Shown here piece after piece: positions 2,293-30,006 of a stretch of DNA of 60,768 nucleotides. The stretch covers positions 1 through 60,768 of the forward strand of contig JBAZUU010000006.1 in assembly GCA_041661275.1 (NCBI GenBank). The letters are read 5' to 3'. This DNA is from Parcubacteria group bacterium. Its GTDB lineage: Bacteria > Patescibacteriota > Minisyncoccia > Moranbacterales > UBA2206. Positions within the stretch are counted from its first letter, which is position 1, and each line of letters begins with the position of its first letter. The translations under genes and the position numbers were made by a program. The notes under the pieces were generated by a model. That model did no database searches. It was not told the origin of the DNA and saw only the letters and a list, made by a program, of their open reading frames with translations.

Positions 2293-2556
2293 CACCTCCT
2301 TTCTAGGGAGATTTTGATGGTAATCGAGAGTATTGCTCGTGAAGTCCGAATCCTGTCATGGGAATTGGATGAGCAGTATGATTACTATCTCGCTGGTCGA
2401 TCCTTTTGTCCTCGGATAAAAGGAAACAGCTAGGCTTAACAGAGCTAAAAACTTCTGTAGCCGTAGGTTTTGTACAACCTGCGCTAGGCTCTTGGACTAA
2501 TCGCAAAAGACTGTGATAACTATAACAAGGACAGCAATAAAATGCTGTTTTTGTGT
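2293..2556 (+). ncRNA. 16S 3' tail plus structured trailer RNA, copy A (contiguous with the real 16S)
   Basis: It starts at CACCTCCTTTCTAGGGAG and has four helices conserved with copies B-D through compensatory changes. It contains the conserved GGTCGA and GGACTAATCGCAAAAGACTGTGAT blocks. It ends in the terminator ACAGCAATAAAATGCTGTTTTT. Confidence 0.6.
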
Positions 2557-2614
2557 TTCTAAAATCAGTATCTGCCTAGAAACGTCTGATTGGAGGGAGA
2601 TTTTAATTGGGTTT

Positions 2615-2652
2615 ACTCCGTTCCCCGCTGGAGTGGATAACTTTTATTGACT
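2615..2652 (+). promoter_or_regulatory. Conserved ACTCCGTTCCCC motif plus TTGACT -35 box upstream of the integrase
   Basis: ACTCCGTTCCCCGCTGGAGTGGATAACTTTTATTGACT is followed 16-17 nt later by TAATGT. Related copies lie at 15239, 25247 and 27562. Confidence 0.5.
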
Positions 2653-2703
2653 TTGTGTGTGTCGAAGCTAATGTGTCACTGACATTAGCAATAAGATACA
2701 TAT

Positions 2704-3591
2704 ATGAAACCAAAAACAATAATAAATACCACTGAAGAATTTCTAACCTGGCTACAAGTCGAAAGACGATTTGCTAAAAGTTCCATCATCAGCTACTGCT
2801 CCCGGCTGAAAGGAATTGTACGCGATATAGGTGACTTGGAGATAAAAAATATTACCTCAGAGCACATTTTCAAACTCAAATCCATTCTGTATGAGAGGCA
2901 GAATTCAGAGGTTTTTACTGGAGTGGTGATGGCGGCCATCAAGGGGCTGCTGCTCTACGCCAGAGATCAGCTGAAAATTCCTATTCAGATTGACCCAGGC
3001 ACAATAACTATTCCAAAACGCAAACGGAAAGACATAATATATCTAACAGTGGACGAAATCAACCGGTTCAGGAACAGTATCAATATTAATACCAGCTGCG
3101 GATTGCGCTTTAGAGCTTTAGTAGAAACGCTCTTAGGTTCCGCCTGTCGCATCTCAGAAGCACTAAGCCTCAATCGCGACTCTATTTCTCCCATTGAAAA
3201 AGAAGCGAGGATAATCGGTAAAGGTGGGAAAGAAAGAGTCCTATATTTCAACGAAGATTCGCTATACTGGATCAATAAATATTCAGAAACAAGGACGGAC
3301 AATAATCCATCTCTTTTTATAACCACCGGAAAATCACCGCGTCAGCTCCGCAATCAGGATTTGAGCCGGTATTTCAAGCACCAGCGGTCGGTTGCAGGTA
3401 TTTCCAAAAAGGTCACGCCGCATATTTTAAGGCATACGGCAGCTACTACGATGGCGATGAATAACTGCTCTGCCATATTTATAAAGGAGATTTTAGGTCA
3501 CAGCCGACTCCAGACCTCAATTGATTATTATATATCCCTCGCTGACAAGCAAAAGGTGAAACAAGCACATCAAACTTTTCTAAAATATTAG
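2704..3591 (+). CDS. Tyrosine recombinase / phage-type integrase
   Basis: It has an N-terminal SAM-like core-binding region and a C-terminal catalytic domain with the motifs ARISEAL, HILRHTAAT and LGHSRLQTSIDYY. Confidence 0.9.
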   Translation: MKPKTIINTTEEFLTWLQVERRFAKSSIISYCSRLKGIVRDIGDLEIKNITSEHIFKLKSILYERQNSEVFTGVVMAAIKGLLLYARDQLKIPIQIDPGTITIPKRKRKDIIYLTVDEINRFRNSININTSCGLRFRALVETLLGSACRISEALSLNRDSISPIEKEARIIGKGGKERVLYFNEDSLYWINKYSETRTDNNPSLFITTGKSPRQLRNQDLSRYFKHQRSVAGISKKVTPHILRHTAATTMAMNNCSAIFIKEILGHSRLQTSIDYYISLADKQKVKQAHQTFLKY

Positions 3592-3634
3592 CTTCTATGA
3601 TTCTGGGGAGATTTTTGTTAAAATAGAAGAAAAT

Positions 3635-4363
3635 ATGGAAAATCCCAATAGCATAGAAGAAGTTATAGAACGAATACAGGAAAAATATAATAGCAGAAAG
3701 GGTTATGAGGAATTTAAGATTCTACTGCTGGATTCTGGCATTCTCAAGGATAGCCTTGATGATTTTTTTATGTTTCCTGAAGGCGAAAACTTTCCAACTG
3801 GCATTAGCTCTTATGCGTTAAAAGAAAAATTCCTGCTGAATAAGGATTTTTTGTTGGATCTGGCCTTAAATCTATACCAGTCCTTGGATGTCAAAAGAAA
3901 AGGGATGCTCCAGTATGCATTTAAGCTGGATGGCCTGACCATAGATAAGGATGAATTGTATAATAAAAATAAAATAGTATTTGAGGTGCAGTATAATAAT
4001 ATCGATAGGGTGCTCCGTGTTAATGGGAAGGGTATTACACGGCCGCGGTTTAACCGGGAGAATGATAATGTCTTCTCATATATTTATGAACATCCCAATC
4101 GACTTTTAATGGTCGATGCAAATGATAAATTAGAGGGTGCAGTTGAGGTTTTGAAAAGTTTGGATGATGTCGTAAAAAATCTTCGGTTTTCCAGAAATGC
4201 AAGGCAGCTATTTTTTCCAAAAGTTAGCGATAAGGAGATTGAGTTTAGAAATCCCATTACCCTGGGTGAGCTTAAGCAGAGGGGTTTTGATGAAAATATT
4301 ACCATAGACGATTTATTTCCAGATAAAAAGCTAGGCACAAAAAGGAATAAAAAGGTCAAATAG
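3635..4363 (+). CDS. Hypothetical protein
   Basis: Intact ORF lying between the two recombinase genes. No recognisable motif. Confidence 0.5.
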   Translation: MENPNSIEEVIERIQEKYNSRKGYEEFKILLLDSGILKDSLDDFFMFPEGENFPTGISSYALKEKFLLNKDFLLDLALNLYQSLDVKRKGMLQYAFKLDGLTIDKDELYNKNKIVFEVQYNNIDRVLRVNGKGITRPRFNRENDNVFSYIYEHPNRLLMVDANDKLEGAVEVLKSLDDVVKNLRFSRNARQLFFPKVSDKEIEFRNPITLGELKQRGFDENITIDDLFPDKKLGTKRNKKVK

Positions 4364-4441: not shown

Positions 4442-5407
4442 ATGTTTCCAATTTTCTCTGACAATTTAATCTTATCCCAGTGTTTTGACCGGCTTTTTGA
4501 GAATATCGAAGCGGATTGTTCGCTGTCTCAAAATTCCGTAGAAACATACAAAAGGATTTGCCCAAGGATTATCCAATTCTTCGGAGATATAAACATAAAG
4601 AAGCTGGATGCGCGGATGATTACCGGCTATAAGCAATTTCTCAATCGGCCAAGCCAGAAAAAGGAAAGATTGAGCGCGACATATAAGAATCAGCACCTGA
4701 CGTTGCTCAGGATACTCCTGAAATTTATTAAAGAAAAAGAGAACATAAAAGCGATGGATTATACGCTGGTTACTAAATATAAGGTTTCTGTCAAAGAGGT
4801 TGAGTTTCTGAATGAATCAGAGTTATCTAGACTGATGAATTACCCCAGCGACAAAACTATTACTGGTTGTCGAATGAGAGCATATCTTGAAACTTCAATT
4901 TCTACCGGCTGTCGGTTGACAGAAATAAGAAATTTGAAAATAGCCGATATCGATTTTGAAAATGGATCCGCCAATATCAGAACAAAAGGCGATAAGCCTC
5001 ATACGATTTTATTCAACAAATCATCATTGGAAGCGATTAAGAAATATCTGGATATGAGGAAAGACAATCACCAGAATCTATTCGTAACCGCCATGCCTCA
5101 TCCTAAACCTTGGCAGGGCAATGACATCGAGAGAAGTCTCCGGATGATTGGGAGAAAATTGAAACTCAGGAAGAATCTCAGGCCTCATTTATTACGGAAA
5201 TCAGCCGCGACGATTTTATACAAGAATAATGTTCCCTTGGGCGTGGTGCAGAATTTTTTAAACCATGCCTCGGCCAGAACCACCCTCTTACATTATCTTG
5301 GAAACTCAAATTTTCAGGAGCTGGAAAGAAATCACCGAAGAGTTATGGATAATCTGAATTTTAAAGATAAGACAGATTTATCTGGAGAGGAGGTGGAATT
5401 ACAATGA
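4442..5407 (+). CDS. Tyrosine recombinase / integrase (second copy, divergent)
   Basis: Motifs: GCRLTEIRNL, HLLRKSAAT and LNHASARTTLLHYL. Confidence 0.85.
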   Translation: MFPIFSDNLILSQCFDRLFENIEADCSLSQNSVETYKRICPRIIQFFGDINIKKLDARMITGYKQFLNRPSQKKERLSATYKNQHLTLLRILLKFIKEKENIKAMDYTLVTKYKVSVKEVEFLNESELSRLMNYPSDKTITGCRMRAYLETSISTGCRLTEIRNLKIADIDFENGSANIRTKGDKPHTILFNKSSLEAIKKYLDMRKDNHQNLFVTAMPHPKPWQGNDIERSLRMIGRKLKLRKNLRPHLLRKSAATILYKNNVPLGVVQNFLNHASARTTLLHYLGNSNFQELERNHRRVMDNLNFKDKTDLSGEEVELQ

Positions 5408-5823
5408 AGTTGCAGAAAAAGGAAACCATGGGAATGCCTTTCGCCAAGAAAGGAACAGATGTCAAAGAAGGAGACATAATTACCATAGGTAGTGAGGGGA
5501 AGATTGTGGAAACTCAATTCGGTTCACAGAACATTTTTGAAATCAAAACTGCCAATGGCGTGGAATTGGTTTTGGGTATCAACCAGACCAGCATCAATGC
5601 CTTGGTGGATGCTTTCGGAGAAGAAACTGCGAACTGGATAGGCAAGAGGGTAAAAGTTCATTCATTTAAGCAAAATGTGGCCGGTAAATTTATTCAAGTT
5701 TACTATATAGCACCGGAAGGCTATGAAATGGGTGAAAATGGATTTGGGAAAGCCGAATCGGCAGGAGTGGTTAATGCTCAGATAAACGAAGAAAGCGCGG
5801 CCGTGGAAGACAACACTTTCTAA
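5404..5823 (+). CDS. Hypothetical protein
   Basis: Its start overlaps the recombinase stop by 4 nt (ATGA), which suggests translational coupling. No recognisable motif. Confidence 0.5.
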   Translation: MKLQKKETMGMPFAKKGTDVKEGDIITIGSEGKIVETQFGSQNIFEIKTANGVELVLGINQTSINALVDAFGEETANWIGKRVKVHSFKQNVAGKFIQVYYIAPEGYEMGENGFGKAESAGVVNAQINEESAAVEDNTF

Positions 5824-5942
5824 CGTTAGCTTATGTGCTTAGCGGAATTATTTTCCGCTTGGCCATAAGCTAATTTTGCTAGGTGAAAATAAATTTTAAT
5901 GAAAGGCATTGACAATCCTATGAGGAATGATAAAATACAATT

Positions 5943-6086
5943 AGAAAACAAAATATTAGGACTTACTTCTTCTGGAGTTTCGCTGTATTTAGATGGTCGA
6001 AGTAGGAAGTCTTTCTCAATTTTAGGTCTGAGAAAAAGTCCGCAAACAATTATCACTTTTAGTGGTAGGCGTTTGCGGGCTTTTTG
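5943..6086 (+). ncRNA. Candidate small RNA (unclassified)
   Basis: A TTGACA (5909), 16 nt spacer, TAAAAT (5931) promoter precedes it, and the terminator CCGCAAAC...GTTTGCGGGCTTTTT (6040-6086) follows. The only ORF inside is unconvincing. Confidence 0.3.
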
Positions 6087-6235
6087 TTTATTAAATTTTT
6101 AACTAACTTGTTCGGTGGCTCCTGCTGGCCTTGGATGCGAACTATTCCGTCCATCCGAGGTCAACGGGAGGCACGACGGAAATATATGAACTACGGTAAT
6201 ATCTCGCCGCGAGAGTATCTGCGGGTAAAAAATAT

Positions 6236-6628
6236 ATGTCAGATATAATAAAAGTTTTATTTGTAGAAGATGATCCGGATCAGCTTTTCCTTTTTCAACA
6301 AGTCTTTAATATTAAAGGCCTTCTCACTATCCCGGCCACTACTATTGATGAGGCTATGAGGATGGTTGCTTTGGATAGACCCGACATTGTACTTTTGGAT
6401 ATAATGCTTCGACATGAAAACGGACTGGATATAATGGAAAAGCTAAAAAAAGACAGCAGCACGAAAGATATTCCGGTTGTTGTCTTTACCAATACGAATA
6501 AAAAGGAGTATCGAGACAGAGCTGAGAAACTTGGTGCGGCTGATTTCATTATCAAATCGCAAACCATTCCTCAGGAAATGGCAGAAAGAGTGAAAGCGCT
6601 TGTGGAGAAAGGGAAAAATGGGGTTTAA
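6236..6628 (+). CDS. Single-domain response regulator (CheY-like receiver)
   Basis: It has the acidic pocket VEDD, the phospho-acceptor context DIVLLDIML, and a conserved T/K region. Confidence 0.85.
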   Translation: MSDIIKVLFVEDDPDQLFLFQQVFNIKGLLTIPATTIDEAMRMVALDRPDIVLLDIMLRHENGLDIMEKLKKDSSTKDIPVVVFTNTNKKEYRDRAEKLGAADFIIKSQTIPQEMAERVKALVEKGKNGV

Positions 6629-6638
6629 TTTCTTTTGC

Positions 6639-6666
6639 TTGACAATTGTTTATAATTAGTTATACT
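6639..6666 (+). promoter_or_regulatory. Sigma-70-type promoter
   Basis: TTGACA, 16 nt spacer, TATACT. Confidence 0.55.
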
Positions 6667-6674
6667 AAGACTAG

Positions 6675-7000
6675 TTGTTAGAAATGAAATTAAAACCTAT
6701 AGCTAGATCCTGGCATTATAATGTCCAGGGTTGGGTCTAGCTGATTTTAAGGAATAATATCCTTGAAAAGGTGGCTTTTGCATCAGTGAGAGCCCGGCAA
6801 TCCTCCGTAATCAAGGGAAAGCTGATGTCGTCCTGCTTAAGCGGGAGACTGAGTCAGTAAAGTGGTCTTAATCCGTTTTGCTGACGGATTTTTTTAATCC
6901 GTCAAAAATAGACAGATCGAGACAAAAAAGGTGGTACCACGGGATAACCTCTCGTCCTTTTGTCTAAGCTCTAGCTTGGGCAAAGAGACGGGAGGTTTTT
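6675..7000 (+). promoter_or_regulatory. T-box riboswitch leader with terminator/antiterminator
   Basis: The T-box sequence AAAAAGGTGGTACCACGGGATAACCTCTCGTCC starts near 6925. An alternative terminator pairs ACCTCTCGTCCTTTTG with CAAAGAGACGGGAGGT and is followed by TTTTT. Upstream hairpins could serve as stems I-III. Confidence 0.65.
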
Positions 7001-7102
7001 ATTTGACCTCCTAGCTAGATTATTGTATGCTAGCAAGTTCAGTTCTTTGAAAAACGATACGCAATAAACAATCTACCTGCAGGAGAAAAGGGAGAGCAAA
7101 TC

Positions 7103-7846
7103 ATGAAAACAGGAAAAATTATTATAATTGATGTATTAGACGATCCCCCATTCAATATAACTGAAATCTTTAAGGCAAGCTTAAAATCGGTGAATATTGA
7201 CGATCACTTGATCGTGGGGATTAATGGATTGGGCAATGATCTGTCTATGCTCCCAAAAATGAATATGTTGGGTGCTATAATTTCAGGGTCTATCCACCAT
7301 GTCATAGAGGATGGTGAAAAAGAATGGGGGAAATCTTTATTCCACTTTATTCGACAATATTATAATTGTATTCCTATTTTGGGTGTTTGCTATGGACATC
7401 AGGCATTGGCCCATGCTCTCGGTGGCGATGTCAGAGCTAACGAACGGGGGCGGGAAATTGGATCAGTGCAAATATTCCTAACAGAAGATGCACGAACTGA
7501 TAAATTGTTTTGTGACTCTGTTGACGGTGGATTTGTTCAAGAGAGTCATTTAGATCATGTCGTTTCCTTACCTAAGGGCGCAATTATTCTTGCTCATAAC
7601 CAACATTCACCAATACAGGCATTTAGAGTAGGAAAAAGTTGGGGGATTCAATTTCATCCAGAATTAAGTCCGCCCATGTTTAGACAGTTGCTAAAAGGAA
7701 GAATAAAAAGATTGATTGCTGATAACGAACATAATGAGGCAAAAAAACTTGAAAGAGTAATGGCGGGAATAAGGGATTGTCCAATGGCAGTTGAAATATT
7801 AAGGAAATTCATACTTCATTGCAAAGAGGAGAAAAAATATGTTTGA
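7103..7846 (+). CDS. Class I glutamine amidotransferase
   Basis: It has the nucleophile elbow GVCYGHQ and the IQFHPE motif. Confidence 0.8.
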   Translation: MKTGKIIIIDVLDDPPFNITEIFKASLKSVNIDDHLIVGINGLGNDLSMLPKMNMLGAIISGSIHHVIEDGEKEWGKSLFHFIRQYYNCIPILGVCYGHQALAHALGGDVRANERGREIGSVQIFLTEDARTDKLFCDSVDGGFVQESHLDHVVSLPKGAIILAHNQHSPIQAFRVGKSWGIQFHPELSPPMFRQLLKGRIKRLIADNEHNEAKKLERVMAGIRDCPMAVEILRKFILHCKEEKKYV

Positions 7847-9005
7847 TATCAAGCACATTCTCAAGAATCATGCGTATCAAAATGTACCCCTATCATACGA
7901 GGAGGCGTATTGCCTGGGTCGGATGACATTGGAAAGCTGTGCTGATTCTGCTGATAAGACGATCCAAATCCAAAGCATAGCCGCTCTGTGTGCTTTGCAT
8001 AATGGAGCGACCTATCGTTGGAGATGGAATGAGCGAGATGCAAGAATTCATGAACATGATCTTCCGACAAGTGCGGCAGAGCAAGTGGCGGGAATATGTG
8101 CGGCAGTATTTGAACACGATATTGCCAAATCTCGCTACGGATTTTTGCGACCGAAAGTCCCTTACGCCATTGACAACTGTGGAATGGGTGGCGACCTGAT
8201 CGTTACCGCCAATGTCAGCACAATCGCAGCATTTATTGCTTCGGCGACCGGTATCATCATGTGCAAGCATGGTTCGCCGGCTAATGCGGACAAGGGCAGG
8301 CATGGCAGTTCCGATTTCATCGCGCAAATCTGCGGAATCAACAACTTCGCTTCTAGGGATGCTGTTGAAAAGTGCGTGGAAAAGCTGGGGTTTGGATACA
8401 CTGAAGCCTGTGACACAGGATATAAGAGTATCCATATGCAGACTCACAAGATTGCGCTCCTTCCGCACATGAACGATATCATCGGTCCGATCACCAATCC
8501 TGTTGATCCCAAAATCATGACCAAAAAAATTCTGGGCATGAACCATCTGGTTCCTCCCAGAGTGGCCGCGGAAGTCTATCAAATCCTCAACCGGAAGGGC
8601 ATTACCCATCTGGAGCACGGTTTCTTTATCCGGGGATTTATCAGCAGCGACCAGTATGACGGCATCGATGAAGTGTCGGTCTGTGACGGCGGGACTCAGG
8701 TGGCTGAACTCAGGGAAGGTGAAATCCATGAATACTGTCTTCATGCCAATGATTTCGGGCTGGATGTTGTATCGCTGGAGAACATTGTACCGCTGGGAAG
8801 TAAGGGCGACTATTCGATGAAAATCCTTCGCGGAGAGATCAATGGGTCTCGCATTAAAATAGTCCTGGCTAATGCGGCATTACTTTTCAAACTGGCGGGT
8901 TTTTCCAGAGATCTCAAAGAATGTTACAAGATAGCGGAAGAGACTCTCAAAAGTGGTAAGGCATACGAAAAGATGATGTCCGTTAGACAGGAAGTGCCGC
9001 TGTAA
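7839..9005 (+). CDS. Anthranilate phosphoribosyltransferase family (glycosyl transferase family 3, TrpD-like) protein
   Basis: DNCGMGGD, KHGSPANA..GSSD and IIGPITNP resemble the TrpD GTGGD, KHGN and GPLxNP motifs. It overlaps the upstream gene by 8 nt. Confidence 0.65.
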   Translation: MFDIKHILKNHAYQNVPLSYEEAYCLGRMTLESCADSADKTIQIQSIAALCALHNGATYRWRWNERDARIHEHDLPTSAAEQVAGICAAVFEHDIAKSRYGFLRPKVPYAIDNCGMGGDLIVTANVSTIAAFIASATGIIMCKHGSPANADKGRHGSSDFIAQICGINNFASRDAVEKCVEKLGFGYTEACDTGYKSIHMQTHKIALLPHMNDIIGPITNPVDPKIMTKKILGMNHLVPPRVAAEVYQILNRKGITHLEHGFFIRGFISSDQYDGIDEVSVCDGGTQVAELREGEIHEYCLHANDFGLDVVSLENIVPLGSKGDYSMKILRGEINGSRIKIVLANAALLFKLAGFSRDLKECYKIAEETLKSGKAYEKMMSVRQEVPL

Positions 9006-9024
9006 AATCCAAAAGGATGAGGGG

Positions 9025-9702
9025 GTGCGAACCGCACTCCCTCTCCACAAAACAATAGGGAGAAAATCGGTGAGGTGTAATAATTTATCGGCAATCGATG
9101 CGGACTTATGGGTTTTTGATAACGACGGTACGCTTTATCGGGATACACGGCCAATCGAGAATGTCGTCGAATCTTTCATGATTGATTTTATAGCCAGATA
9201 TTATGGGCTTAATCGCGAACAGGCGACGACAAAAAGGAGGGAGATTTTACGAAAGTATCGGACTTCCTATACTCTTATCGCAATGCGTAATGAAGGTGTA
9301 GACGAAGACGAATTCATCCGGGCTACCTATCTCAAGGTAAATCCGTCGGATTACGGAATATCCGATAGCCCTGACTTGAGGAATATTCTCTTGAGTTGCA
9401 AGGGGGAGCGGATCGTTCTTACCAATAACGTTTCAGAATTTGCAAATGCAATTCTTTGCTCTCTCGGTATCCGTGATCTTTTTTCCTCCATCGTGGGAAT
9501 GAGAGAACGAAATTTTGCGCAAAAACCAGATACAAGTGCCTTCGGTTTTGTGCAATCTGCGCTTAGAGTCGGCAGATCAGTGGCGTTTCTGGATGATGGA
9601 ATCGAAAACATTAAAACCACAAAACAGCTCGGCTGTGTTACAATACTAGTGAAAAATAGGGAGCTCACCGAGTATGCAGATTTCAGAGTTCAATTGTCAT
9701 AG
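9025..9702 (+). CDS. HAD-superfamily hydrolase
   Basis: It has the FDNDGTLY motif I and a C-terminal FLDD motif. The start codon is uncertain. Confidence 0.7.
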   Translation: MRTALPLHKTIGRKSVRCNNLSAIDADLWVFDNDGTLYRDTRPIENVVESFMIDFIARYYGLNREQATTKRREILRKYRTSYTLIAMRNEGVDEDEFIRATYLKVNPSDYGISDSPDLRNILLSCKGERIVLTNNVSEFANAILCSLGIRDLFSSIVGMRERNFAQKPDTSAFGFVQSALRVGRSVAFLDDGIENIKTTKQLGCVTILVKNRELTEYADFRVQLS

Positions 9703-9724
9703 ATATGGCGAAAGGACTCAACTT

Positions 9725-9758
9725 GAGGTGGACTGCATTTTAGTCCACCTCGTTTTTA
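9725..9758 (+). terminator. Intrinsic terminator
   Basis: GAGGTGGACT hairpin paired with AGTCCACCTC, followed by a T-run. Confidence 0.7.
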
Positions 9759-9774
9759 TTAAATAAGTACAGAT

Positions 9775-11559: not shown

Positions 11560-11589
11560 GTTCTTTCTTTTTAACGAAACCCTTATTGC

Positions 11590-21156: not shown

Positions 21157-21166
21157 AATTAAAACT

Positions 21167-21532: not shown

Positions 21533-21557
21533 ATTTAGTATCATTTTAATTTTTTTC

Positions 21558-22766: not shown

Positions 22767-22787
22767 TCATTAAACATATTTAAACAT

Positions 22788-23708
22788 ATGGCGGATCAAA
22801 ATCATTCACATTCCGAAATAGAAAAAGGCGAGGCGACTAAGAACCTGGCATTTGCCATCGGACTCAATATCATAATCGTGGCGTTTGAAATCATCTTCGG
22901 GTTGCTTTCGCGCAGTATGGCGCTCATATCCGAAGCCATCCATAATTTTACGGATGTTGGATCAATGGGCTTGAGTTTCTGGGGTGAGAAACTGGCCGAT
23001 CGTCCACAAACCAACAGTAAAACTTTCGGCTACAAAAGAGCGGAAGTGATCATCGCTTTCACGAACGGCGGCATACTTCTTGCGGTCACGATATTCATCA
23101 TCATCGAAGCGGTGGGGAGACTGCTCCATCCTGAAACGGTCGCGGGTTTTCAGATGCTTATCGCCGCCGTTGTCGCATTAGTCGGAAACGGAATCGCGAC
23201 CTATATACTGGAGAAAGATTCACATAAAAACCTCAATCTTAAAAGTGCCTGGCTCCACTCTTTTCAGGACGCTATATTCTCTCTAGGTGTGTTGGCCGCC
23301 GCCTTAATTATCTATTTTACCGGTTGGAACTGGGTTGATCCGGCACTCTCACTCATTATTTCCGTTTTTCTGCTGAAAGAAATTTATTCTCTGGTGATGG
23401 AGTCGGTGGAAATGCTTCTCGATTCGGTACCGTCAGATGTCGATTTTTTGGAAGTGCAAAAATCACTCCTGGCGGAAGAAGGCATTCAGGAAGTGCATGA
23501 TCTCCATATCTGGCAAACCAATACCGACAACCGTTTTTTGAGCGCCCACCTTATGACCGGACAGTCTGACGACTCCCAAAGAATCAATATGATCGTTTCT
23601 ATTCAAAAGATGCTCCGAGAAAAATATCGCATCAACCATGCCACGCTTCAGGCAGTTTCCCAACAGGAAGCCCAAAGGCTGGATTTGAAATGCGAACATT
23701 GTAATTAA
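22788..23708 (+). CDS. Cation diffusion facilitator family metal efflux transporter (CzcD/ZitB-like)
   Basis: It has the six-TM CDF core with HNFTDV and HSFQDA motifs and a C-terminal cytoplasmic domain. Confidence 0.85.
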   Translation: MADQNHSHSEIEKGEATKNLAFAIGLNIIIVAFEIIFGLLSRSMALISEAIHNFTDVGSMGLSFWGEKLADRPQTNSKTFGYKRAEVIIAFTNGGILLAVTIFIIIEAVGRLLHPETVAGFQMLIAAVVALVGNGIATYILEKDSHKNLNLKSAWLHSFQDAIFSLGVLAAALIIYFTGWNWVDPALSLIISVFLLKEIYSLVMESVEMLLDSVPSDVDFLEVQKSLLAEEGIQEVHDLHIWQTNTDNRFLSAHLMTGQSDDSQRINMIVSIQKMLREKYRINHATLQAVSQQEAQRLDLKCEHCN

Positions 23709-23722
23709 TAGCTTCTAATCTT

Positions 23723-24691
23723 ATGAACATATTTTATCCCATTCAACTATTCGCCGATTGGCTGACTTATTCAATCTTTAACATCATTCCTAAAACGTTG
23801 CTGGCCAGCGCAGTTAATTTTTTCATCTTTGATACTATTAAGATAATTTTGCTTTTGATTGTGATAATCTTTATTGTGTCGATTGTTCGTTCATATCTTC
23901 CACCCGAGAAAATCAGAAACATTCTCTCGCACGAAAAAAAATATGTGGGAAACATCTTAGCATCGCTCCTTGGGATCATCACACCATTTTGCTCATGTTC
24001 AGCAGTACCACTATTTTTAGGTTTTGTGCAGGCAGGAGTCCCTTTAGGCACTACTTTTTCTTTTCTAGTTGCTTCCCCAATGATCAATGAAGTGGCGTTG
24101 GTGCTTCTCCTTGGGATGTTCGGCTGGAAAATTGCTCTCATTTATATCATAAGCGGGCTTTTGATTGCGATATTCTCTGGCATGGTTATTGAGAAGATGG
24201 ATGTGAGATCATTAGTGGAAGAGTTCGCGCTTAACGGAAACGGAAGAGACATCGATCTTCCAGAATTAAAATGGAAACAAAGAGTCAAATACGCCAAAAG
24301 TTATACTTTGGACATCGTGAAAAAAGTCTGGCTGTATATCGTTATTGGAGTCGGACTGGGCGCTTGGATTCATGGTTATGTGCCAGCTGATTTTTTGGCG
24401 CAATACGCCGGCAGCGACAAATGGTATGCTGTGCCATTGGCCACTCTCATTGGCATTCCACTTTATTCCAACGCAGCTGGAGTCATTCCGCTGGTCGGAG
24501 CGCTCACTGAGAAAGGCGTGGCCATGGGAACAAGCCTGGCTTTCATGATGGCAGTGACGGCGCTTTCGCTTCCAGAGTTTATGATTTTGAAAAAAGTGAT
24601 GAAAGTGAAGCTGATTGTCATTTTCGCGAGCGTTGTGGGAATTGGCATAATTTTCACAGGCTACTTGTTTAATTTCATTTTAGGGAACTAG
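23723..24691 (+). CDS. DUF318/ArsP-type permease
   Basis: It is a multi-TM protein with a TPFCSCSAVPLF motif. Confidence 0.7.
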   Translation: MNIFYPIQLFADWLTYSIFNIIPKTLLASAVNFFIFDTIKIILLLIVIIFIVSIVRSYLPPEKIRNILSHEKKYVGNILASLLGIITPFCSCSAVPLFLGFVQAGVPLGTTFSFLVASPMINEVALVLLLGMFGWKIALIYIISGLLIAIFSGMVIEKMDVRSLVEEFALNGNGRDIDLPELKWKQRVKYAKSYTLDIVKKVWLYIVIGVGLGAWIHGYVPADFLAQYAGSDKWYAVPLATLIGIPLYSNAAGVIPLVGALTEKGVAMGTSLAFMMAVTALSLPEFMILKKVMKVKLIVIFASVVGIGIIFTGYLFNFILGN

Positions 24692-24911
24692 TTTATTTGC
24701 GATAAGGTCCTGACTCTTTTCATGATCCGGAAAAAGATAAATAGTGTGCGCCACCGTGGGGTAAGATTGCATAGGGGATAACTGACTTGCTAATTACTGC
24801 AAGTAAGCTACAATGGCGACACCTTGAAAAGCTAATTATTTTTTTAGCCAAATAGAGATAGTTTCTTCTCAATTTATTGCGGTAAAGTTCGCGAGTCTAT
24901 TCGTTCTCAAA

Positions 24912-25176
24912 CACCTCCTTTCTAGGGAGATTTTGACAATAGTCTAGAAATGTTTCTTAGTAGCAGTTATGTCCCTCATAGGATGTAATGGGAAGCATTG
25001 AGTATTGTCCGGCGGTCGAACTCCGATTCTATCGGAGAACTGCCAAGGGCTTAACTGAGCCAAATAATCAGTAGCCATACCTCTTGTACAAGGGTATGCA
25101 TAGACTCGGGACTAATCGCAAAAGAATGTGATTTACTTTGCTTAAAGCAAGAACACCTTAAATGGTGTTTTTTGCG
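24912..25176 (+). ncRNA. 16S 3' tail plus structured trailer RNA, copy C
   Basis: It shares the core and helix pattern and contains GGACTAATCGCAAAAGAATGTGAT. Its terminator is the same as in copy B. Confidence 0.6.
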
Positions 25177-25246
25177 TTGGCTAATTCATATAACTCCCTA
25201 GAATCGTCCCAAAATAGAGGGAGTTTTTGGCTTTTTAATATTTATT

Positions 25247-25306
25247 ACTCCGCTCCGCTTTGAAATATATTTAACACTTGACCGTATTATATAATGGGTA
25301 TATATT
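25247..25306 (+). promoter_or_regulatory. Diverged copy of the motif plus promoter
   Basis: ACTCCGCTCCGC ... TTGACC (25278), then a 17 nt spacer and TATATT (25301). It lies downstream of trailer copy C. Confidence 0.4.
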
Positions 25307-25356
25307 CATAATATAGACTCAGCTAAAAAGCTAAAATAGAAAGGCAGGTGATAATT

Positions 25357-25614
25357 ATGCCAAATAGAGATAAAACAGGTCCAATGGGAATGGGTTCTGG
25401 TACAGGCAGAGGAATGGGTCCTTGCGGAAGAGGAGCTGGTTCAGGTTTAGGAATGGGCAGAGGCTATGGCAGAGCGATGTGCGGTTGGTTCTATCGGAAA
25501 TACCAAGCAATGCCGAAAGATGAAAGAAAAGAGTTGCTAAAATCAGAAATTGAAGACTTGAAACAAGAAATGCAAATGGTGGAGGAAGAACTGAAAGGAC
25601 TGGAAAAGAAATAA
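25357..25614 (+). CDS. DUF5320-like Gly-rich protein with a C-terminal coiled coil
   Basis: MPNRDKTGPMGMGSGTGRGMGPCGRG N-terminus. Confidence 0.6.
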   Translation: MPNRDKTGPMGMGSGTGRGMGPCGRGAGSGLGMGRGYGRAMCGWFYRKYQAMPKDERKELLKSEIEDLKQEMQMVEEELKGLEKK

Positions 25615-25706
25615 TTTCCATCGGAAGCAGTCTTTCTCCTTCTTTAGCTAGCAAGGAAGGAGAAGATTGTTTTTGATGATATAATAAAGTAAACTAAGAA
25701 AATTTT

Positions 25707-25982
25707 ATGACAAGACCAAAATTATGTAAGCGACTACGCTTTAAGCCCAAGGCTCATTATTTCAAGCCCCAAGGCATTCCAATGTATGAATTGGAAGAAG
25801 TGATTTTGACCAAGGAAGAAATGGAAGCAATTAAACTTAAAGACTATGATAATTTAGAACAAGTTGAGGCTTCAGAAAAAATGAATACTTCCCAGAGCAC
25901 TTTTCAGCGGATTCTGTCTTCCGCCAGAATTAAAATTGCCGAGGCGATTGTTAAAGGCAAAGCGTTAAGAATTGAAGAATAA
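25707..25982 (+). CDS. DUF134 (UPF0251) putative DNA-binding protein
   Basis: It has the KPxxxYFKPxGIP N-terminus and a sigma-like HTH (STFQRIL). Confidence 0.65.
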   Translation: MTRPKLCKRLRFKPKAHYFKPQGIPMYELEEVILTKEEMEAIKLKDYDNLEQVEASEKMNTSQSTFQRILSSARIKIAEAIVKGKALRIEE

Positions 25983-25994
25983 AAATAAAAAATT

Positions 25995-26243
25995 ATGATA
26001 ACCTTTTTCGGTATTTTTAGCGGGATTCTCAACACCATCAGATTGTTTCCCCAGGTATATAAAAGCTGGAAAACAAAAAAGACAACAGACTTATCAGGTT
26101 ATTTCGTGGCTATTTTATTTCTTCAATCTGTTTTTATTATACTTTACGGCATATACAAGCCAGACCCGATTATCCTTTGGACAAATGTCAGTCCGCTGGT
26201 CTGCTCTATTGTTCTGGCAAGATTGAAAATGAAATACGAATAA
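25995..26243 (+). CDS. SemiSWEET / PQ-loop family transporter
   Basis: It is an 82 aa three-TM protein with a PQ motif (FPQVYKSWKTKKT). Confidence 0.7.
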   Translation: MITFFGIFSGILNTIRLFPQVYKSWKTKKTTDLSGYFVAILFLQSVFIILYGIYKPDPIILWTNVSPLVCSIVLARLKMKYE

Positions 26244-26295
26244 ATTAAAAATAATGCTATAATTTACTCGCATTTAATCATTAACAAAAAACAAT

Positions 26296-26694
26296 ATGAA
26301 AGGATTTAACGCCAACATTGAAAAGGAGACTTTGAAAAACGGGAATTTTCGCAAGGTGCTCTATACTGGCAAACACAGCCAGTTGGTTCTTATGAGTCTT
26401 AAGCCAAAAGAAGAAATCGGAATGGAAGTTCACGAAGAAAACGACCAGTTTTTCAGATTTGAAAAAGGCGAGGGAAAATGCATTATTGACGGCAATGAAT
26501 ATGAATTGAAAGATGGTGTGGCGATTGTTGTCCCCGCTGGTGCCCAGCACAATATCATCAATACTTCCGAAACCGAGGATTTGAAAATGTATACGATTTA
26601 TTCTCCAGCTCATCACAAAGACGGCATAGTGAGAGCTACCAAGGAAGAAGCGGAGGCTAATGACGCTGAATTTGACGGAGTGACAACGGAATAA
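26296..26694 (+). CDS. Cupin-domain protein
   Basis: It is of cupin size and has cupin-like motifs (EVHEENDQFF ... PAGAQHNI). Confidence 0.7.
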   Translation: MKGFNANIEKETLKNGNFRKVLYTGKHSQLVLMSLKPKEEIGMEVHEENDQFFRFEKGEGKCIIDGNEYELKDGVAIVVPAGAQHNIINTSETEDLKMYTIYSPAHHKDGIVRATKEEAEANDAEFDGVTTE

Positions 26695-26705
26695 TTTCCA
26701 ATCGT

Positions 26706-27080
26706 ATGAAGAAAATAATTTTAGCTTTAGTAATCATTGCCGTGCTGGTAGTTGCCAGCGGATTTTTCAGTCTCTTTTATACTGTCCGCAAGACCTGCAA
26801 TTCTGCCAAAGAAAAACACGGAGGCAAATGTCAGACAGCTCTCGTAGCAGTATTGGAAGATAAAAAAGCTACTCCTAAAGAAAAGAATGATGCTATCTGG
26901 GCATTGGGACAAATGGCAGATTCGGAATCTCTGCCTGCTTTAGAAAAAATATATGCAGGCAAAGTTCCTGAAGGCAGAGAACCTCTAAATGAAGTCGTCA
27001 GTCAATATGAAATAGAAAAAGCCATCCGCTGGGTGAAAAATGGAAATATTACAAGTTGGATGTATGGGTGCCTAAAGTAA
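26706..27080 (+). CDS. Membrane-anchored HEAT-repeat-like protein
   Basis: It has an N-terminal TM helix and an AIWALGQMADSESLPALEKI HEAT-like repeat. Confidence 0.5.
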   Translation: MKKIILALVIIAVLVVASGFFSLFYTVRKTCNSAKEKHGGKCQTALVAVLEDKKATPKEKNDAIWALGQMADSESLPALEKIYAGKVPEGREPLNEVVSQYEIEKAIRWVKNGNITSWMYGCLK

Positions 27081-27100
27081 TCGTTAAAAACTATAAAATT

Positions 27101-27505
27101 ATGCCAAGTTTTGAAATACCTGACAATACAATAAAAAAATCGGAAGCGGAGATTAAGAATGAAAAAGAGGATAGAAAGAAAAGAATTATCGCTTTAGCAA
27201 AAGAACTTAGCGAAAGCAGGGAGAGCATCTCCTTCCCAGGCATTGATGCTGAAAGCTATCAAAAATTAAAAGCCAATGACGAGGAATTTCCAGGTTTTGT
27301 TACTCCCATAGACGAATTAGTCCAAAGGTTTGAAAACGAGGGAATAAAAGTAGTCTTTGGAAGAGACCCTGAAAGTGGCAATGTTTTCATTTTACCGTTT
27401 GGGAGCAATGATGTTGAAAATGACAGTATTTTTCCTAAACATTTACAAATTGATGAATCTATGGACAGCAGGCTCAAGGAGTTGATTTTGGCAAGCAGAA
27501 GTTGA
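27101..27505 (+). CDS. Hypothetical protein, paralog of the N-terminal tip plus C-terminal extension of the 16318-17628 hydrolase
   Basis: MPSFEIPD matches MPNFENPS. The C-terminal ~110 aa are highly similar to the hydrolase C-terminus (KVVFG.DPESGNVFILPFGSNDVE...SRLKELIL). The hydrolase core is absent. Confidence 0.6.
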   Translation: MPSFEIPDNTIKKSEAEIKNEKEDRKKRIIALAKELSESRESISFPGIDAESYQKLKANDEEFPGFVTPIDELVQRFENEGIKVVFGRDPESGNVFILPFGSNDVENDSIFPKHLQIDESMDSRLKELILASRS

Positions 27506-27561
27506 AACCGCATCTTTGAATAGTCGCAGGAACCGCCAAAACTGGCGGTTTTTTGCTATTT

Positions 27562-27599
27562 CCTCCGTTCCCCACTGGAGTGGATAACTTTCGTTGACT
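27562..27599 (+). promoter_or_regulatory. Orphan copy of the motif upstream of the decayed integrase
   Basis: CCTCCGTTCCCCACTGGAGTGGATAACTTTCGTTGACT is nearly identical to the 2615 copy, but no trailer RNA precedes it. Confidence 0.5.
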
Positions 27600-27630
27600 T
27601 CGTTGCCCCAAGAGCTAACATCGCCTTGCG

Positions 27631-28307
27631 ATGTTACAAAACACTAAAACTAAAAAAAGAATAAGCGACATGGCCGAGGAATACCTGACGTGGTTGCAAG
27701 TGGAGCGCAGATTCGCGAAAAGTTCTATCGTTAGTTACCGGTCTCGGCTAAAGTGCTTCGTTAGGGATGTGGGCGATATAAGACTGGATGAATTTACGAT
27801 GGAACACATCTATAAGCTAAAGCAGATATTGCACGAAAGAGAAAATACGGAGGTGTTTATGGGGGTATGTCTTGCGGTTATCAAAGGACTACTGAAATAT
27901 TATCGTGACCACTACTCCACTCCGCTCCAAATCAATCCGGATCAAATAACTATTCCCAAGCGTCCTCGCAGAGAGGTCGTTTTTTTACCTCAGAAGAGAT
28001 TAAGAGATTTAGGGAATCCATTGATATAAAACCCTTATATGGATTAAGATTTAGGACTCTGGTGGAAGTTTTACTTGGGACTGGGATGAGAATCTCGGAA
28101 GCTCTTTCGCTCAGTAAAGATTCTATTGATTTTGCAACTCACGAAGCGAGAATCATTGGCAGGGGTAATAAGCAACGGGTGGTTTTTTTCACTGAGGAAT
28201 CGTTAGGATGGGTTCAGCAGTATTTTAATCTTATATTCTGGCCGCTTATAAATCTTATCCTTATTATCGCTTTCTATAAAAAATATTATTTCATACAGAA
28301 AAGATAA
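27631..28307 (+). pseudogene. Decayed tyrosine integrase, paralog of 2704-3591
   Basis: The N-terminus EEYLTWLQVERRFAKSSIVSYRSRLK matches the intact integrase. There is a frameshift in a T-run near 27985. The catalytic HxxR / Y region is missing after ...WVQQYFN. Confidence 0.8.
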
Positions 28308-28414
28308 AAATAAATAATGATCATAATATTATGGTTTTTAGCGGCTACGGGACATTTTCTTCTCGCTATTTTTAGTTTTTTTTCACTTCTTTTAAAAAAG
28401 CAGGGGATTAAATA

Positions 28415-28454
28415 TTATCGTATATAATCGTATGCAGTTGATTATATACGATAA
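28415..28454. promoter_or_regulatory. Perfect 15 bp inverted repeat upstream of fic (putative operator)
   Basis: TTATCGTATATAATC, 10 nt spacer, GATTATATACGATAA. A third half-site, ATCGTATATAAT, overlaps the -10 of the TTGACA (28462) promoter. Confidence 0.5.
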
Positions 28455-28519
28455 CCGACACTTGACAATTAGATACAATCGTATATAATTAGATATAGTT
28501 AAGTTATATCTAAACCTAT

Positions 28520-29578
28520 ATGGAAAACAGATTTAAAAAAAGAGTCAATTTGACTGATGAAATACTCAATAAAATTACCCAAATTGACGAATTTAGGGGC
28601 TTGTGGAGGGGTAGCTTAAGACTTAGTCCTCAAACGCTGGGCAGGCTTAAAAGAAGCGTCCTTATTACCAGTACGGGGGCTTCTACTCGTATTGAAGGCT
28701 CACAAATGTCTGATGAAGAAGTGGCGAGACTTTTGCGTGGTCTAAAATCAGTACCCCCTAAGGGGCGAGATGCGGAGGAAGTGGCAGGATATGCGGATCT
28801 GCTCGGTCGAATATTTGATAATTGGAAAACCTTCAAAATTACCGAGGGGCAGATTTTGCATTTTCATAAAATACTTCTTAATTTTTCCGAAAAAGACAAA
28901 GGACATAAAGGAAAATACAAGACATCTGATAATAAGGTAGTAATGAGAAAAGAAGATGGCACAGAAGTGGTTATTTTTGACCCAACACCTCCATATATTA
29001 CAAAAAAGGAAATGGACGATGTTTTGTTTTGGCTTAACGAGCAAATAGAAAAGAGGGAAATTCATTTACTTATTCTTATTGCAAACTTTATTTTTGAATT
29101 TCTGGCAATCCATCCTTTCCGTGATGGAAATGGAAGACTTTCAAGAGCATTAACAACCTTACTTCTTCTTAAGGCTGGCTATGCTTATGTTCCCTATATA
29201 TCACTTGATGAAATAATTGAAGAAAAGAAGATTGATTATTATCTGGCTCTCCGAAAAACGCAGTCCAAACATAAGACAGAAAGTGAGGATATAACACCTT
29301 GGCTCAATTTTTTCCTGGATGCTCTCTTGGAACAAGTAAAAAGAGCAAAAGCGATAATGGAAGAAGACCAGCCAGAAAAATTGCTTTCAGAAAAACAACT
29401 GACAATTTATCAGTTATTTCAACAAAGTGATACGCTAAGTGTTTCGGAGGTTAGTGAACTTCTTAATGGCTCAATTCCAATGGCAACCATCAAACAGGCA
29501 TTATCACGCCTGGTTGATTTGAAATTGATTGAAAGAATGGGAGTAACCAGGGGGGCAAGATACAAAAATTGTAGTTAA
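28520..29578 (+). CDS. Fic family protein (AMPylase-type) with a C-terminal wHTH
   Basis: Canonical HPFRDGNGRLSR motif. Confidence 0.9.
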   Translation: MENRFKKRVNLTDEILNKITQIDEFRGLWRGSLRLSPQTLGRLKRSVLITSTGASTRIEGSQMSDEEVARLLRGLKSVPPKGRDAEEVAGYADLLGRIFDNWKTFKITEGQILHFHKILLNFSEKDKGHKGKYKTSDNKVVMRKEDGTEVVIFDPTPPYITKKEMDDVLFWLNEQIEKREIHLLILIANFIFEFLAIHPFRDGNGRLSRALTTLLLLKAGYAYVPYISLDEIIEEKKIDYYLALRKTQSKHKTESEDITPWLNFFLDALLEQVKRAKAIMEEDQPEKLLSEKQLTIYQLFQQSDTLSVSEVSELLNGSIPMATIKQALSRLVDLKLIERMGVTRGARYKNCS

Positions 29579-29730
29579 CTTTATCCATAGATAGGTTTGC
29601 AATTTTCCAAATTATGCAGTAGAACCAAACTATAAAAATACAAGGTAATTTTACAATAATTTTTTATTTTACAACTGATAATTTGCAGCTTAAATTCAAA
29701 GATTTTTTGCGAAGTCTGACTGAACTCGAA

Positions 29731-30006
29731 CACCTCCTTTCTGGGGAGAATCGATAATAACCCAGAATATTGCTCGCGAAGTCCGAATCCGTCATTGGAG
29801 GAGGATGAGCAGTATGGTTATTATCACGGCGGTCGACCAGCCAAAATTTTTTCTACGAAAAAACTTAGGCTGGAACGCCAATGCCTAACAGAGCTGTAAA
29901 ATCTGTAGGTGTGTTTGTACACACACTGGTAGACTTTAGGACTAATCGCAATAGACTGTGATAGCTATAACAAGGACAGCGATGAAACGCTGTTTTTGTG
30001 TTTTTG
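29731..30006 (+). ncRNA. 16S 3' tail plus structured trailer RNA, copy D
   Basis: Core is CACCTCCTTTCTGGGGAG. It is the closest relative of copy A, with long near-identical stretches, and ends in the terminator ACAGCGATGAAACGCTGTTTTT. Confidence 0.6.

Follow-up and report, generated by a model that had tools for sequence, protein, structure and literature searches.

A 16S rRNA gene at the beginning of contig JBAZUU010000006.1 from a Patescibacteria genome of the Moranbacteria type (Parcubacteria group bacterium, assembly GCA_041661275.1; the 60,768 nucleotides of the contig are referred to as the window) was found to be followed by further copies of its own 3′ end, each joined to a homologous structured RNA element. 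The 27 kb from the 16S end to a histidine kinase gene likely represent stacked site-specific integrative elements, or remnants of such elements, successively inserted at an 18 bp core. Judging from its complementarity to the 16S leader, the RNA element behind each core is the 3′ trailer of the 16S precursor. The best explanation of this arrangement is that the logic of tRNA and tmRNA islands is applied to an rRNA gene, with the 16S 3′ end as a new target. Literature searches yielded no description of natural elements integrating at the 16S 3′ end.

Copies of the 16S 3′ End

The core, CACCTCCTTTCTRGGGAG, combines the 12 terminal bases of the 16S gene with the next 6 bases downstream. It occurs at positions 2293, 14833, 24912, and 29731 (copies A, B, C, and D, respectively), always on the + strand and with zero mismatches to the 18-base pattern. 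The chance expectation derived from shuffled sequences was 0.02 matches, and none of 100 shuffles reached four. Copy A is the genuine 16S end and the only copy with 16S sequence upstream of the core, while homology among the four copies begins precisely at the C of CACCTCC. When the window was searched by nhmmer with all filters off, no decayed copies beyond these four were detected, and no further trailer was found to the right of copy D. The copies delimit three segments, which span, trailers included, 2311–14832 (segment 1, or island 1), 14851–24911 (segment 2), and 24930–29730 (segment 3).

Every core is followed by a homologous element of 250–360 nt, which ends in a hairpin and a T-run. 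Core and trailer together were traced by nhmmer at 2293–2564, 14833–15194, 24912–25179, and 29731–30009. Pairwise identity of the trailers was 55–66%, with the exception of A and D, which are 78% identical. Behind copies A, B, and C, a post-terminator module was observed (GGGAG, T-run, ACTCCGTTCC), which is probably an island-side attachment (att) arm or a regulatory sequence, and the promoter scan placed a promoter-like site after the module of copies B and C. Copy D carries no such module and is directly followed by the histidine kinase gene. An earlier note on this DNA had described the four + strand core strings, the homologous elements running to a terminator, and the restriction of upstream 16S sequence to copy A; all three statements held when exact pattern matching, alignment, and nhmmer were applied.

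Two other treatments of the core were discarded. A role as the Shine-Dalgarno sequence of a divergent gene was rejected, as the flanks hold no start codon at the right distance. The genome-wide pattern CACCTCCTTTCTRGGGAG N{75,100} GGTCG proved too unspecific, with the 16S end common to Collinsella, Dehalococcoidia, and others among the matches listed.

Structure of the Trailer RNA and Its Pairing with the 16S Leader

The four window copies were aligned with 18 homologs from other genomes, and the RNAalifold consensus of these 22 sequences was evaluated. Within the 41 consensus pairs, 93.3% of cells were paired, compared to 38–45% when the partners were slid by 1–3 columns, and changes on both sides were observed in 31 pairs. 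The covariation score was 0.600 versus 0.08–0.12, and the observed values were reached by none of 500 shuffles; the hairpin inside the conserved block was left out of these statistics. Helices H2 and H4 and the terminator hairpin, which sit in gappy alignment columns, were folded one sequence at a time and formed in 22 of 22 cases, with very different stem sequences. The CTCCTT/AGGGAG hairpin at the core was unchanged across the whole set. The helices with compensatory changes listed in the earlier note were recovered in this larger alignment, and their covariation stayed strong after the 18 homologs had been added. No Rfam family matched the trailer at its gathering score, the best being Bacilli-1 with 19.6 bits against a cut-off of 55.6.

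Related genomes provided the pairing partner of the conserved block (L with a number denotes a locus of a related genome or contig compared with the window). In L002, L003, and L012, which contain the complete 16S gene and its upstream region, the conserved trailer block GGACTAATCGCAAWAGAYTGTGA is matched by its reverse complement in the 16S leader, TCACAATTTTTTGCGATTAGTCC or a sequence close to it. Leader–trailer duplexes of 22–26 bp, with energies of −30 to −36 kcal/mol, were obtained for L002, L003, L012, L023, and L028, the shuffled mean being about −8. A compensatory change was present in L023 and L028, where A-to-G in the leader is accompanied by T-to-C in the trailer (A-U to G-C), and direct reading revealed a second short pairing beside the main helix, between leader GAGTCTA and trailer TAGACTC. 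With the leaders of relatives, duplexes of 21–26 bp are possible for all four window copies (23 bp for trailer A). In copy B, the leader-complementary block is broken by an insertion of approximately 45 nt into GGACT (15057–15061) and AATCGCAATAGGTTGTGAT (15107–15125).

On the evidence of this complementarity, the conserved block makes up the 3′ strand of the leader–trailer processing helix of pre-16S, which identifies the repeated element as the 16S 3′ trailer and would account for the retention of the block in every island copy. The earlier note was mistaken in regarding block GGACTAATCGCAAWAGAMTGTGAT as an invariant single-stranded joiner, since it is complementary to the 16S leader. The leader of the window genome is expected to hold TCACAnnnTTGCGATTAGTCC, the complement of block GGACTAATCGCAA...TGTGA.

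Terminator hairpins of −9 to −16 kcal/mol, with A and T tracts alongside, were recognized in 20 of the 22 trailers. A + strand terminator scanner called the hairpin of copy D, while those of A, B, and C miss the rules of the scanner. No 23S gene was found in the 60 kb window; together with the terminator-like hairpin at the end of each trailer, this indicates that the 16S gene is transcribed alone, so that an insertion behind it splits no operon. The trailer is composed of the anti-Shine-Dalgarno/GGGAG hairpin, the covarying domain H1–H4, the 3′ strand that completes the processing helix, and an intrinsic terminator. Its structure is best explained by an RNA-level role in pre-16S maturation and termination, and the RNA-structured att arm suggested by the earlier note is not needed.

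Trailer diversity in relatives was apparent in two further cases. The trailers at L027 96–353 and L094 1166–1392, which lie on one contig, are near-identical in the first ~100 nt and near H4 and differ in H2 and at the 3′ end; such mosaic similarity suggests gene conversion or recombination between trailer copies. A second, very different trailer type, beginning with ATACGGTGAAG or TTACGGTGA, was found after the same core in L015, L019, L020, L022, L023, L029, and L042, and it also ends in a leader-complementary block (e.g., L023 4171–4400). Related genomes thus carry non-homologous trailers on their 16S.

Recombinases and Their Link to 16S Ends

Two intact Xer-like tyrosine recombinases, Int1 and Int2, are encoded behind trailer A, and a decayed Int1 paralog is located in segment 3 (Table 1). 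Int1 and the decayed paralog had been recognized in the earlier note, which was correct in this respect and left the second intact recombinase unmentioned. Residues R149, H240, R243, H266, and Y276 of Int1 are invariant in the alignment and occupy the expected catalytic positions. Int2 is 26% identical to Int1 and was found after it in about ten loci of relatives (L015–L018, L022, L023, L025–L028). The decayed paralog keeps ~60 nt of its upstream region, without core or trailer.

Neither protein reached the thresholds of the established NCBIfam Xer families. Int1 scored 134.7 with XerC (cut-off 329.6) and 122.9 with XerD (cut-off 335), the corresponding values for Int2 were 119.3 and 117.6, and both proteins also remained well below the XerA and integron-integrase cut-offs. 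When integron integrase models were applied to Int1, 62 bits were obtained with TIGR02249 (cut-off 265) and 38 with PRK15417 (cut-off 435).

Int1 homologs amounted to 1087 at E ≤ 1e-10, many of them ~60% identical and from Moranbacteria-type genomes; loci were drawn from species-representative genomes and, independently, from metagenome contigs. All homologs of at least 55% identity with a full 6 kb of upstream sequence have a core upstream on the same strand, and genuine 16S ends account for about two thirds of these cores. After removal of duplicates, an Int1-family gene was located within 6.5 kb downstream of 24 further genuine 16S ends, and 34 non-16S cores were likewise followed by such a gene. 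A separate pattern search added three more 16S ends with an Int1-family gene, one of them in Doudnabacteria, where a 41–42% identical homolog starts 355–390 nt past the true 16S end. The neighborhood of 16S end and integrase, for which other genomes were named in the earlier note as the place to look, was in this way encountered repeatedly.

Integrase similarity does not track 16S similarity, as judged from the sequence identities. The 16S of L025 is 91–94% identical to that of the window and its Int1 just 58%, while for L029 the values are ~80–86% and 85%, respectively; inside the window, two Int1 lineages with 61% identity coexist. Among viral contigs, no close relatives of Int1 were detected, the best being 27–32% identical, which indicates that the elements are not recognised phages.

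More distant homologs (41–46% identical to Int1) were observed in contigs binned as Acidobacteria (soil clade), where they form integrase–core–integrase arrays (L211 1988–6870, L033 4788–6891, L238 428–6897, about 25 metagenome loci). Each core of this type, CACCTCCTTTCTAAGGA, has a hairpin resembling 16S helix 45 in front of it. Behind the core, a trailer-like element of ~230 nt contains TGGTCGA, hairpins, and a large terminator right in front of the start of the integrase gene; in no case was a 16S gene joined to it. Moranbacteria-type 16S ends with trailers and Int1 were also present in bins labelled Bdellovibrionales, Syntrophobacteraceae, Deltaproteobacteria, Bathyarchaeia, and Saccharibacteria (L004, L005, L006, L010, L017–L020, L029, and others); these labels probably reflect misbinning or mislabelling. 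In addition, chain 14 of PDB entry 9i5v (9i5v_14; 401 residues), named 'ribosome-associated translation inhibitor RaiA', matched the Int1 profile over residues 79–294 with E=5e-21, conserved tyrosine-recombinase motifs included, and is probably a fused, mis-started, or mis-annotated sequence.

Occupancy of the Site in Relatives and Support for the Assembly

The sequence adjoining the 16S gene varies among relatives. In L026, the 16S runs straight into a B-like trailer, with 88% identity across positions 14831–15252 of the window, while in L039 it is adjoined by the segment-3 genes, including the decayed integrase and Fic. The gene pair DUF5320–DUF134 alone lies between the 16S trailer and a partial second trailer in L007. 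In L168 and L171, an A-like trailer and island-1-like Int1, Int2, and the next open reading frame (ORF) adjoin the 16S, with 1.8–3.1 kb of extra DNA before Int1. Several 16S ends (L001, L007, L143) had no integrase within 5–6 kb, so the gene is sporadic at the site.

An island-1-like unit was also found away from the 16S gene. Contig JBAQNU010000024.1 carries cores at 96 (the 16S end), 29,829, and 65,166, and the unit is located between the last two, 30 kb from the 16S. Identities to the window were 84% for Int1, 71% for Int2, and 91% for the next ORF, and the right end of the unit before the core, AAAATTTGCCGACAAT, is the same as that of island 1 in the window (AAAATTTRCCGACAAT). Right-end flanks fall into recurrent classes, e.g., TCTCCCACGAAT before the core in nine loci, and the GCGAGTCTATTCGTTCTCAAA flank before core C occurs as the same sequence in L020. 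Many of these right ends show an extra partial core, TTTCTAGGGAG, ~60 nt upstream. This partial core was seen ~55–70 nt upstream of several non-16S cores at unit right ends, including window 14777–14792 and L005, L009, L011, L016, and L020, and may be an additional recombinase binding site.

The two ends of contig JBAQNP010000032.1 (19,764 nt; represented by L008 1–8000 and L157 1–3764) share 50 identical bases that lie inside a trailer. Joined at this overlap, the contig forms a circle in which a non-16S flank, a core, a trailer, and an integrase are present, as would be expected of an excised element. Besides two integrases, it carries a GmrSD restriction endonuclease, a small-terminase-like gene, and the large subunit of exonuclease VII, and it may be an excised, satellite-like element.

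The junctions of the window were re-found in independent Logan assemblies of other samples: A through B in SRR18595301, C in SRR6484324, and D in both, with the Fic–D–kinase junction present in two assemblies. Exact-protein look-ups with the kinase, Int1, the tryptophanyl-tRNA synthetase (TrpRS), ArsP, and the ORF at 15343 all returned the arrangement of the window. The exact stretch common to the copies is only about 25 bases long, and the name of the source contig (k141_) suggests an assembly k-mer well above this length. A chimera formed through the repeats is thus unlikely, and the chimeric assembly considered in the earlier note is counter-indicated by the repeated junctions.

Proposed Course of Integration

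The tandem islands at the 16S 3′ end put forward in the earlier note are supported by the covariation, the sharp boundary at the core, the integrase–16S link, the variable occupancy, and the re-found junctions. Recombination would be performed by Int1, probably with Int2 as its partner. Core A is proposed as the crossover region and as attL of island 1. A crossover at core CACCTCCTTTCTAGGGAG would sever the 16S from its own 3′ trailer, i.e., from the 3′ strand of a ~23 bp processing helix and from the terminator of the unlinked 16S, which would be the reason why the elements carry a replacement. The incoming element would bring a complete trailer directly after its own core (H1–H4, leader-complementary block, and terminator), followed by the short conserved module and a promoter for its genes. 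After integration, this trailer would serve the 16S, and the former one would be moved to the far end of the element. The trailers would be retained because each has to function in pre-16S processing and termination once its element adjoins the 16S.

Under this model, the stack would read, starting from the 16S: A, island 1 (the newest, with intact Int1/Int2), B, segment 2 (integrase lost), C, segment 3, D, and chromosome, segment 3 consisting of two units fused by deletion, with a decayed integrase. Copy D is probably the resident trailer and copies A–C are probably element-borne; the missing module and the direct transition into the kinase gene fit the resident character of D.

A number of observations weigh against this model. 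No integrase was detected in segment 2 by tblastn with the window integrases, and that of segment 3 is decayed and located away from the left end. Island 1 opens with an integrase, as stated in the earlier note, while in most relatives Int1 lies 0.5–6 kb from the nearest core and not right after the trailer; owing to this variable distance, the moving unit is not sharply defined. Neither an empty site nor an attP junction or circle was found for the window population in the exact-protein look-ups and Logan assemblies. The overlap of JBAQNP010000032.1, the sole circle-like case, which belongs to another genome, is equally expected for an island between two identical trailers. If the tRNA-Trp and TrpRS of island 1 are the only copies in the genome, this segment could not be lost. 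The 16S leader of the window genome lies outside the window, so copies A–D were paired with the leaders of relatives only. Helices of displaced copies were 91% paired, compared to 93% in 16S-attached copies, which is unexpected for pure relics. Finally, a search for a 16S-joined version of the Acidobacteria-type element gave no matches.

Alternative Explanations

The high pairing in displaced copies would be explained if the trailer itself were recognized in recombination, either as a folded single strand, like integron attC, or as an RNA guiding or licensing the Xer-like pair. The same would hold for the Acidobacteria-type layout, in which a 16S-tail core, GGTCGA block, hairpins, terminator, and integrase follow each other with no 16S nearby. 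Such recognition is regarded as unlikely.

An integron-like platform is, on balance, unlikely. In such a platform, resident and vertically inherited Int1/Int2 beside the 16S would reshuffle integrase-less cassettes at a site formed by the core and structured trailer. Small integrase-less units bounded by trailers are indeed numerous (the DUF5320–DUF134 unit of L007 has 730 nt, and Fic is the sole gene in L005 and L043), segment 2 is devoid of integrases, the repeats keep structure over sequence as attC sites do, and Int1 is near the 16S in most Moranbacteria-type loci sampled. However, integrase-less units equally fit decayed or trans-mobilised elements. Int1 is itself part of the first unit, enclosed by copies A and B, and segment 3 holds a second, decayed Int1 lineage. 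On JBAQNU010000024.1, both recombinases belong to an island-1-like unit that shares its right end with island 1 and is found 30 kb from the 16S. Integrase and 16S similarity also disagree, the score of Int1 remained far below the integron-integrase cut-off, and the units, 4.8–12.5 kb long, have their own promoter-like sites and terminators.

It is very unlikely that the extra copies are independent small-RNA genes that mimic the 16S 3′ end and the leader-binding strand, e.g., as decoys in ribosome maturation or translation. This possibility would agree with the equal preservation of helices in unattached and attached copies, with weak promoter-like sites upstream of C and D, and with the Acidobacteria-binned core, trailer-like element, and helix-45-like hairpin that precede integrases with no 16S nearby. 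On the other hand, a terminator at 14697–14720 lies ~110 nt before core B, and the scan gave no + strand promoter-like site between them. The copies always separate gene blocks that are ordered differently elsewhere, and they are very tightly linked to one integrase family, and the onset of homology at an identical base of the 16S tail would be left unexplained. A small-RNA function and the island model could also both be true.

Segmental duplication of the 16S 3′ region with subsequent divergence, or an assembly artefact, in either case without a mobile element, is hardly tenable and already contradicted by the comparative data: duplication can yield same-strand direct repeats, and the mosaic of L027 and L094 shows sequence exchange between copies, but the repeated part never includes 16S upstream of CACCTCC, the copies are just 55–78% identical with unrelated flanks, the same units occupy different positions in other genomes, and three independent assemblies repeat junctions whose exact shared stretch of ~25 nt is below typical assembly k-mers.

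Comparison with Known Systems

The closest resemblance is to tRNA/tmRNA islands of the Islander/TIGER class (PMC4383910), in which a tyrosine recombinase acts and the crossover falls within the 3′ end of a gene for a structural RNA. The element brings its own copy of the part that it displaces and so preserves the function of the gene, the far end is recognizable by the displaced fragment, and tandem arrays arise when the site is used repeatedly. The window differs from them in that the target is the 16S, 12 mature bases are duplicated, a non-mature trailer of 250–360 nt is replaced, and the recombinases are short, Xer-like, and usually paired. With respect to island features, an integrase lies inside segment 1 (Int1 and Int2, intact) and segment 3 (decayed Int1), and direct repeats, consisting of the 18 bp core and the homologous trailer, stand at each boundary; the target is the 16S 3′ end and not a tRNA or tmRNA gene.

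Integrative and conjugative elements (ICEs) such as ICESt1 and ICESt3, together with integrase-less cis-mobilizable elements (CIMEs), reportedly accrete at the 3′ end of fda in Streptococcus thermophilus. As in the window, att-type repeats part stacked units, some of which have lost their integrase and are mobile only with help; unlike in the window, the target is protein-coding and no structured RNA is carried. Integrative mobile elements exploiting Xer (IMEX; CTX-phi, RS1, TLC) use host XerCD at dif, in the replication terminus. They share with the window Xer-type recombinases, a short target of two half-sites with a central region, and tandem arrays at one site, whereas here the recombinase genes are inside the units, their products fall below the XerC/XerD cut-offs, and the site is the 16S end.

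Integrons resemble the window in their same-strand arrays of units, structure-conserved repeats, and adjoining tyrosine recombinase. Their attC sites measure 57–141 nt and mostly accompany single promoterless ORFs, in contrast to repeats of 250–360 nt with terminators and to multi-gene units with promoter-like sites and an integrase inside the unit. GInts carry three recombinase genes and ginD (ginABCD) and insert at the 5′ ends of protein genes with 10–11 nt repeats (PMC5385486). In GInts and in the strand-biased circularising elements of Vibrio (PMC5385486, PMC9345347), tyrosine recombinase genes come first and are followed by a small ORF, as in the window. The resemblance of GInts to the gene pair of the window is superficial, and an assignment to either group was rejected, as only two ORFs match Phage_integrase and the ORF at 3635–4363 bears no signature of a recombinase and is missing between Int1 and Int2 in L015, L017, and L022.

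The trailer itself can be compared with the RNase III stem of E. coli and B. subtilis pre-16S, in which a leader–trailer duplex brackets the mature RNA. Both form a long duplex between sequences up- and downstream of the 16S; in the window, unlike in the textbook stem, a domain of four covarying helices comes first, the 3′ strand stands ~200 nt past the 16S end, and this strand is supplied by a mobile element. R2 retrotransposons of eukaryotic 28S rDNA are likewise specialised on one precise rRNA gene site; within the multi-copy array, the copy that receives an R2 element is inactivated. The recombinase-borne island, in contrast, keeps the 16S, maybe the only copy of the genome, intact.

Known landing sites of islands are tRNA and tmRNA genes and some protein genes, to which the 16S 3′ end would be added. 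If the model is correct, an rRNA gene can be an integration hot spot, apparently enabled by the unlinked 16S, and mobile elements supply signals for rRNA processing and termination, so that part of pre-rRNA maturation runs on horizontally acquired sequence. Accessory genes (metal resistance, Fic, defence, tRNA-Trp/TrpRS) would be linked to a phylogenetic marker, which bears on binning and on the linking of functions to taxa. Int1/Int2 and the 18 bp core could also be developed into a tool for site-specific integration in Patescibacteria, in which genetic manipulation is very difficult.

Gene Content of the Segments

The coordinates of all features are listed in Table 1.

Table 1. Features of the window from the 16S gene to the histidine kinase gene.
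Feature	Position	Strand	Remarks and basis
16S rRNA gene, model position 262 to 3′ end	1..2304	+	Rfam SSU matches 1–1340, 2150–2302; sequence reading
Core A: 16S anti-Shine-Dalgarno tail CACCTCCTTTCT (12 nt) + AGGGAG	2293..2310	+	Exact pattern match
Trailer A, now joined to 16S	2311..2564	+	H1–H4, leader-complementary block 2494–2517, terminator hairpin 2525–2560; alignments, covariation, hairpins
Post-terminator module (GGAGGGAGATTTT ... ACTCCGTTCCCCGCTGGAGTGG hairpin)	2592..2637	+	Alignment; also kept in L016, L168
Int1, intact Xer-like tyrosine recombinase, 295 aa	2704..3591	+	Phage_integrase E=4e-28
ORF of 242 aa between Int1 and Int2	3635..4363	+	No Pfam or NCBIfam match
Int2, intact Xer-like tyrosine recombinase, 321 aa	4442..5407	+	Phage_integrase E=2e-33
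Rest of segment 1 (island 1 cargo)	5404..14832	+	Pfam, NCBIfam, tRNA search
Core B + trailer B	14833..15194	+	Terminator 15154–15183; pattern match, alignment, nhmmer
Segment 2 after trailer B	15195..24911	+	Module 15213–15250, promoter-like site 15263–15291; Pfam, promoter scan
Core C + trailer C	24912..25179	+	Leader-complementary block 25109–25132, terminator 25150–25176
Segment 3 after trailer C	25180..29730	+	Module, promoter-like site 25278–25306; Pfam, tblastn
Decayed Int1 paralog	27631–28307		61% identical to Int1, frameshifted, truncated; tblastn
Core D (G at position 13) + trailer D	29731..30009	+	Leader-complementary block 29939–29962, terminator 29970–29999
Histidine kinase, first gene past the array	30051..31385	+	HATPase_c, HisKA

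The 16S gene is interrupted by an AT-rich insert of ~200 nt (about 860–1060) and by an intron of ~875 nt at about 1290–2165, which holds a LAGLIDADG endonuclease ORF (1629–2102; LAGLIDADG_1 E=2e-17), and for this reason the Rfam match stops at 1340. The final 153 nt restart at 2150 and end at about 2302–2304. The intron is present in L001, L002, and L007 and absent from L003, L012, and L168.

In segment 1, the ORF at 3635–4363 is not kept at its position in relatives, and the gap between Int1 and Int2 is merely 210–290 nt in L015, L017, and L022. The cargo of island 1 starts with a small ORF (5404–5823) and genes for a response regulator, a glutamine amidotransferase, a TrpD-like protein, HAD, PfkB, and BtpA; it continues with tRNA-Trp (11590–11666), a pyridoxal phosphate (PLP)-dependent decarboxylase on the − strand, and TrpRS (13559–14656), up to the right end ...AAAATTTACCGACAAT. 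The tRNA-Trp gene is the sole tRNA and an internal part of the cargo, not a boundary. A tryptophan theme was noted over window 7103–14656, comprising the glutamine amidotransferase, TrpD-like phosphoribosyltransferase, tRNA-Trp, the PLP-dependent aromatic-type decarboxylase, and TrpRS, which passed the trpS cut-off.

Segment 2 contains hypothetical ORFs, a split alpha/beta hydrolase, YceG, and a metal-resistance set consisting of ArsR, thioredoxin, a DsbD-like protein, ferredoxin, a chromate transporter, a cation efflux protein, and ArsP. Segment 3 encodes DUF5320, DUF134, PQ-loop, cupin, and HEAT-like proteins, a hydrolase fragment, the decayed Int1 paralog, and Fic (28520–29578). Metal resistance and Fic are island-typical cargo, as is the GmrSD restriction endonuclease in the relative. 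In segment 2, two ORFs share the split alpha/beta hydrolase (16318–17628); the fragment of segment 3 (27056–27505) is homologous to its C-terminal part, and both match one stretch of L026.

Base composition did not separate the segments. The cumulative GC skew increases over the greater part of the window and levels off after about 47 kb, with no clear reversal. Past copy D, at 32266–34194, a second cluster of ArsR, thioredoxin, cation-efflux, and ArsP genes was found, with 65–80% DNA identity to the cluster of segment 2 (18744–19293 and 23196–24091), and the DNA to the right of D thus also appears accessory.

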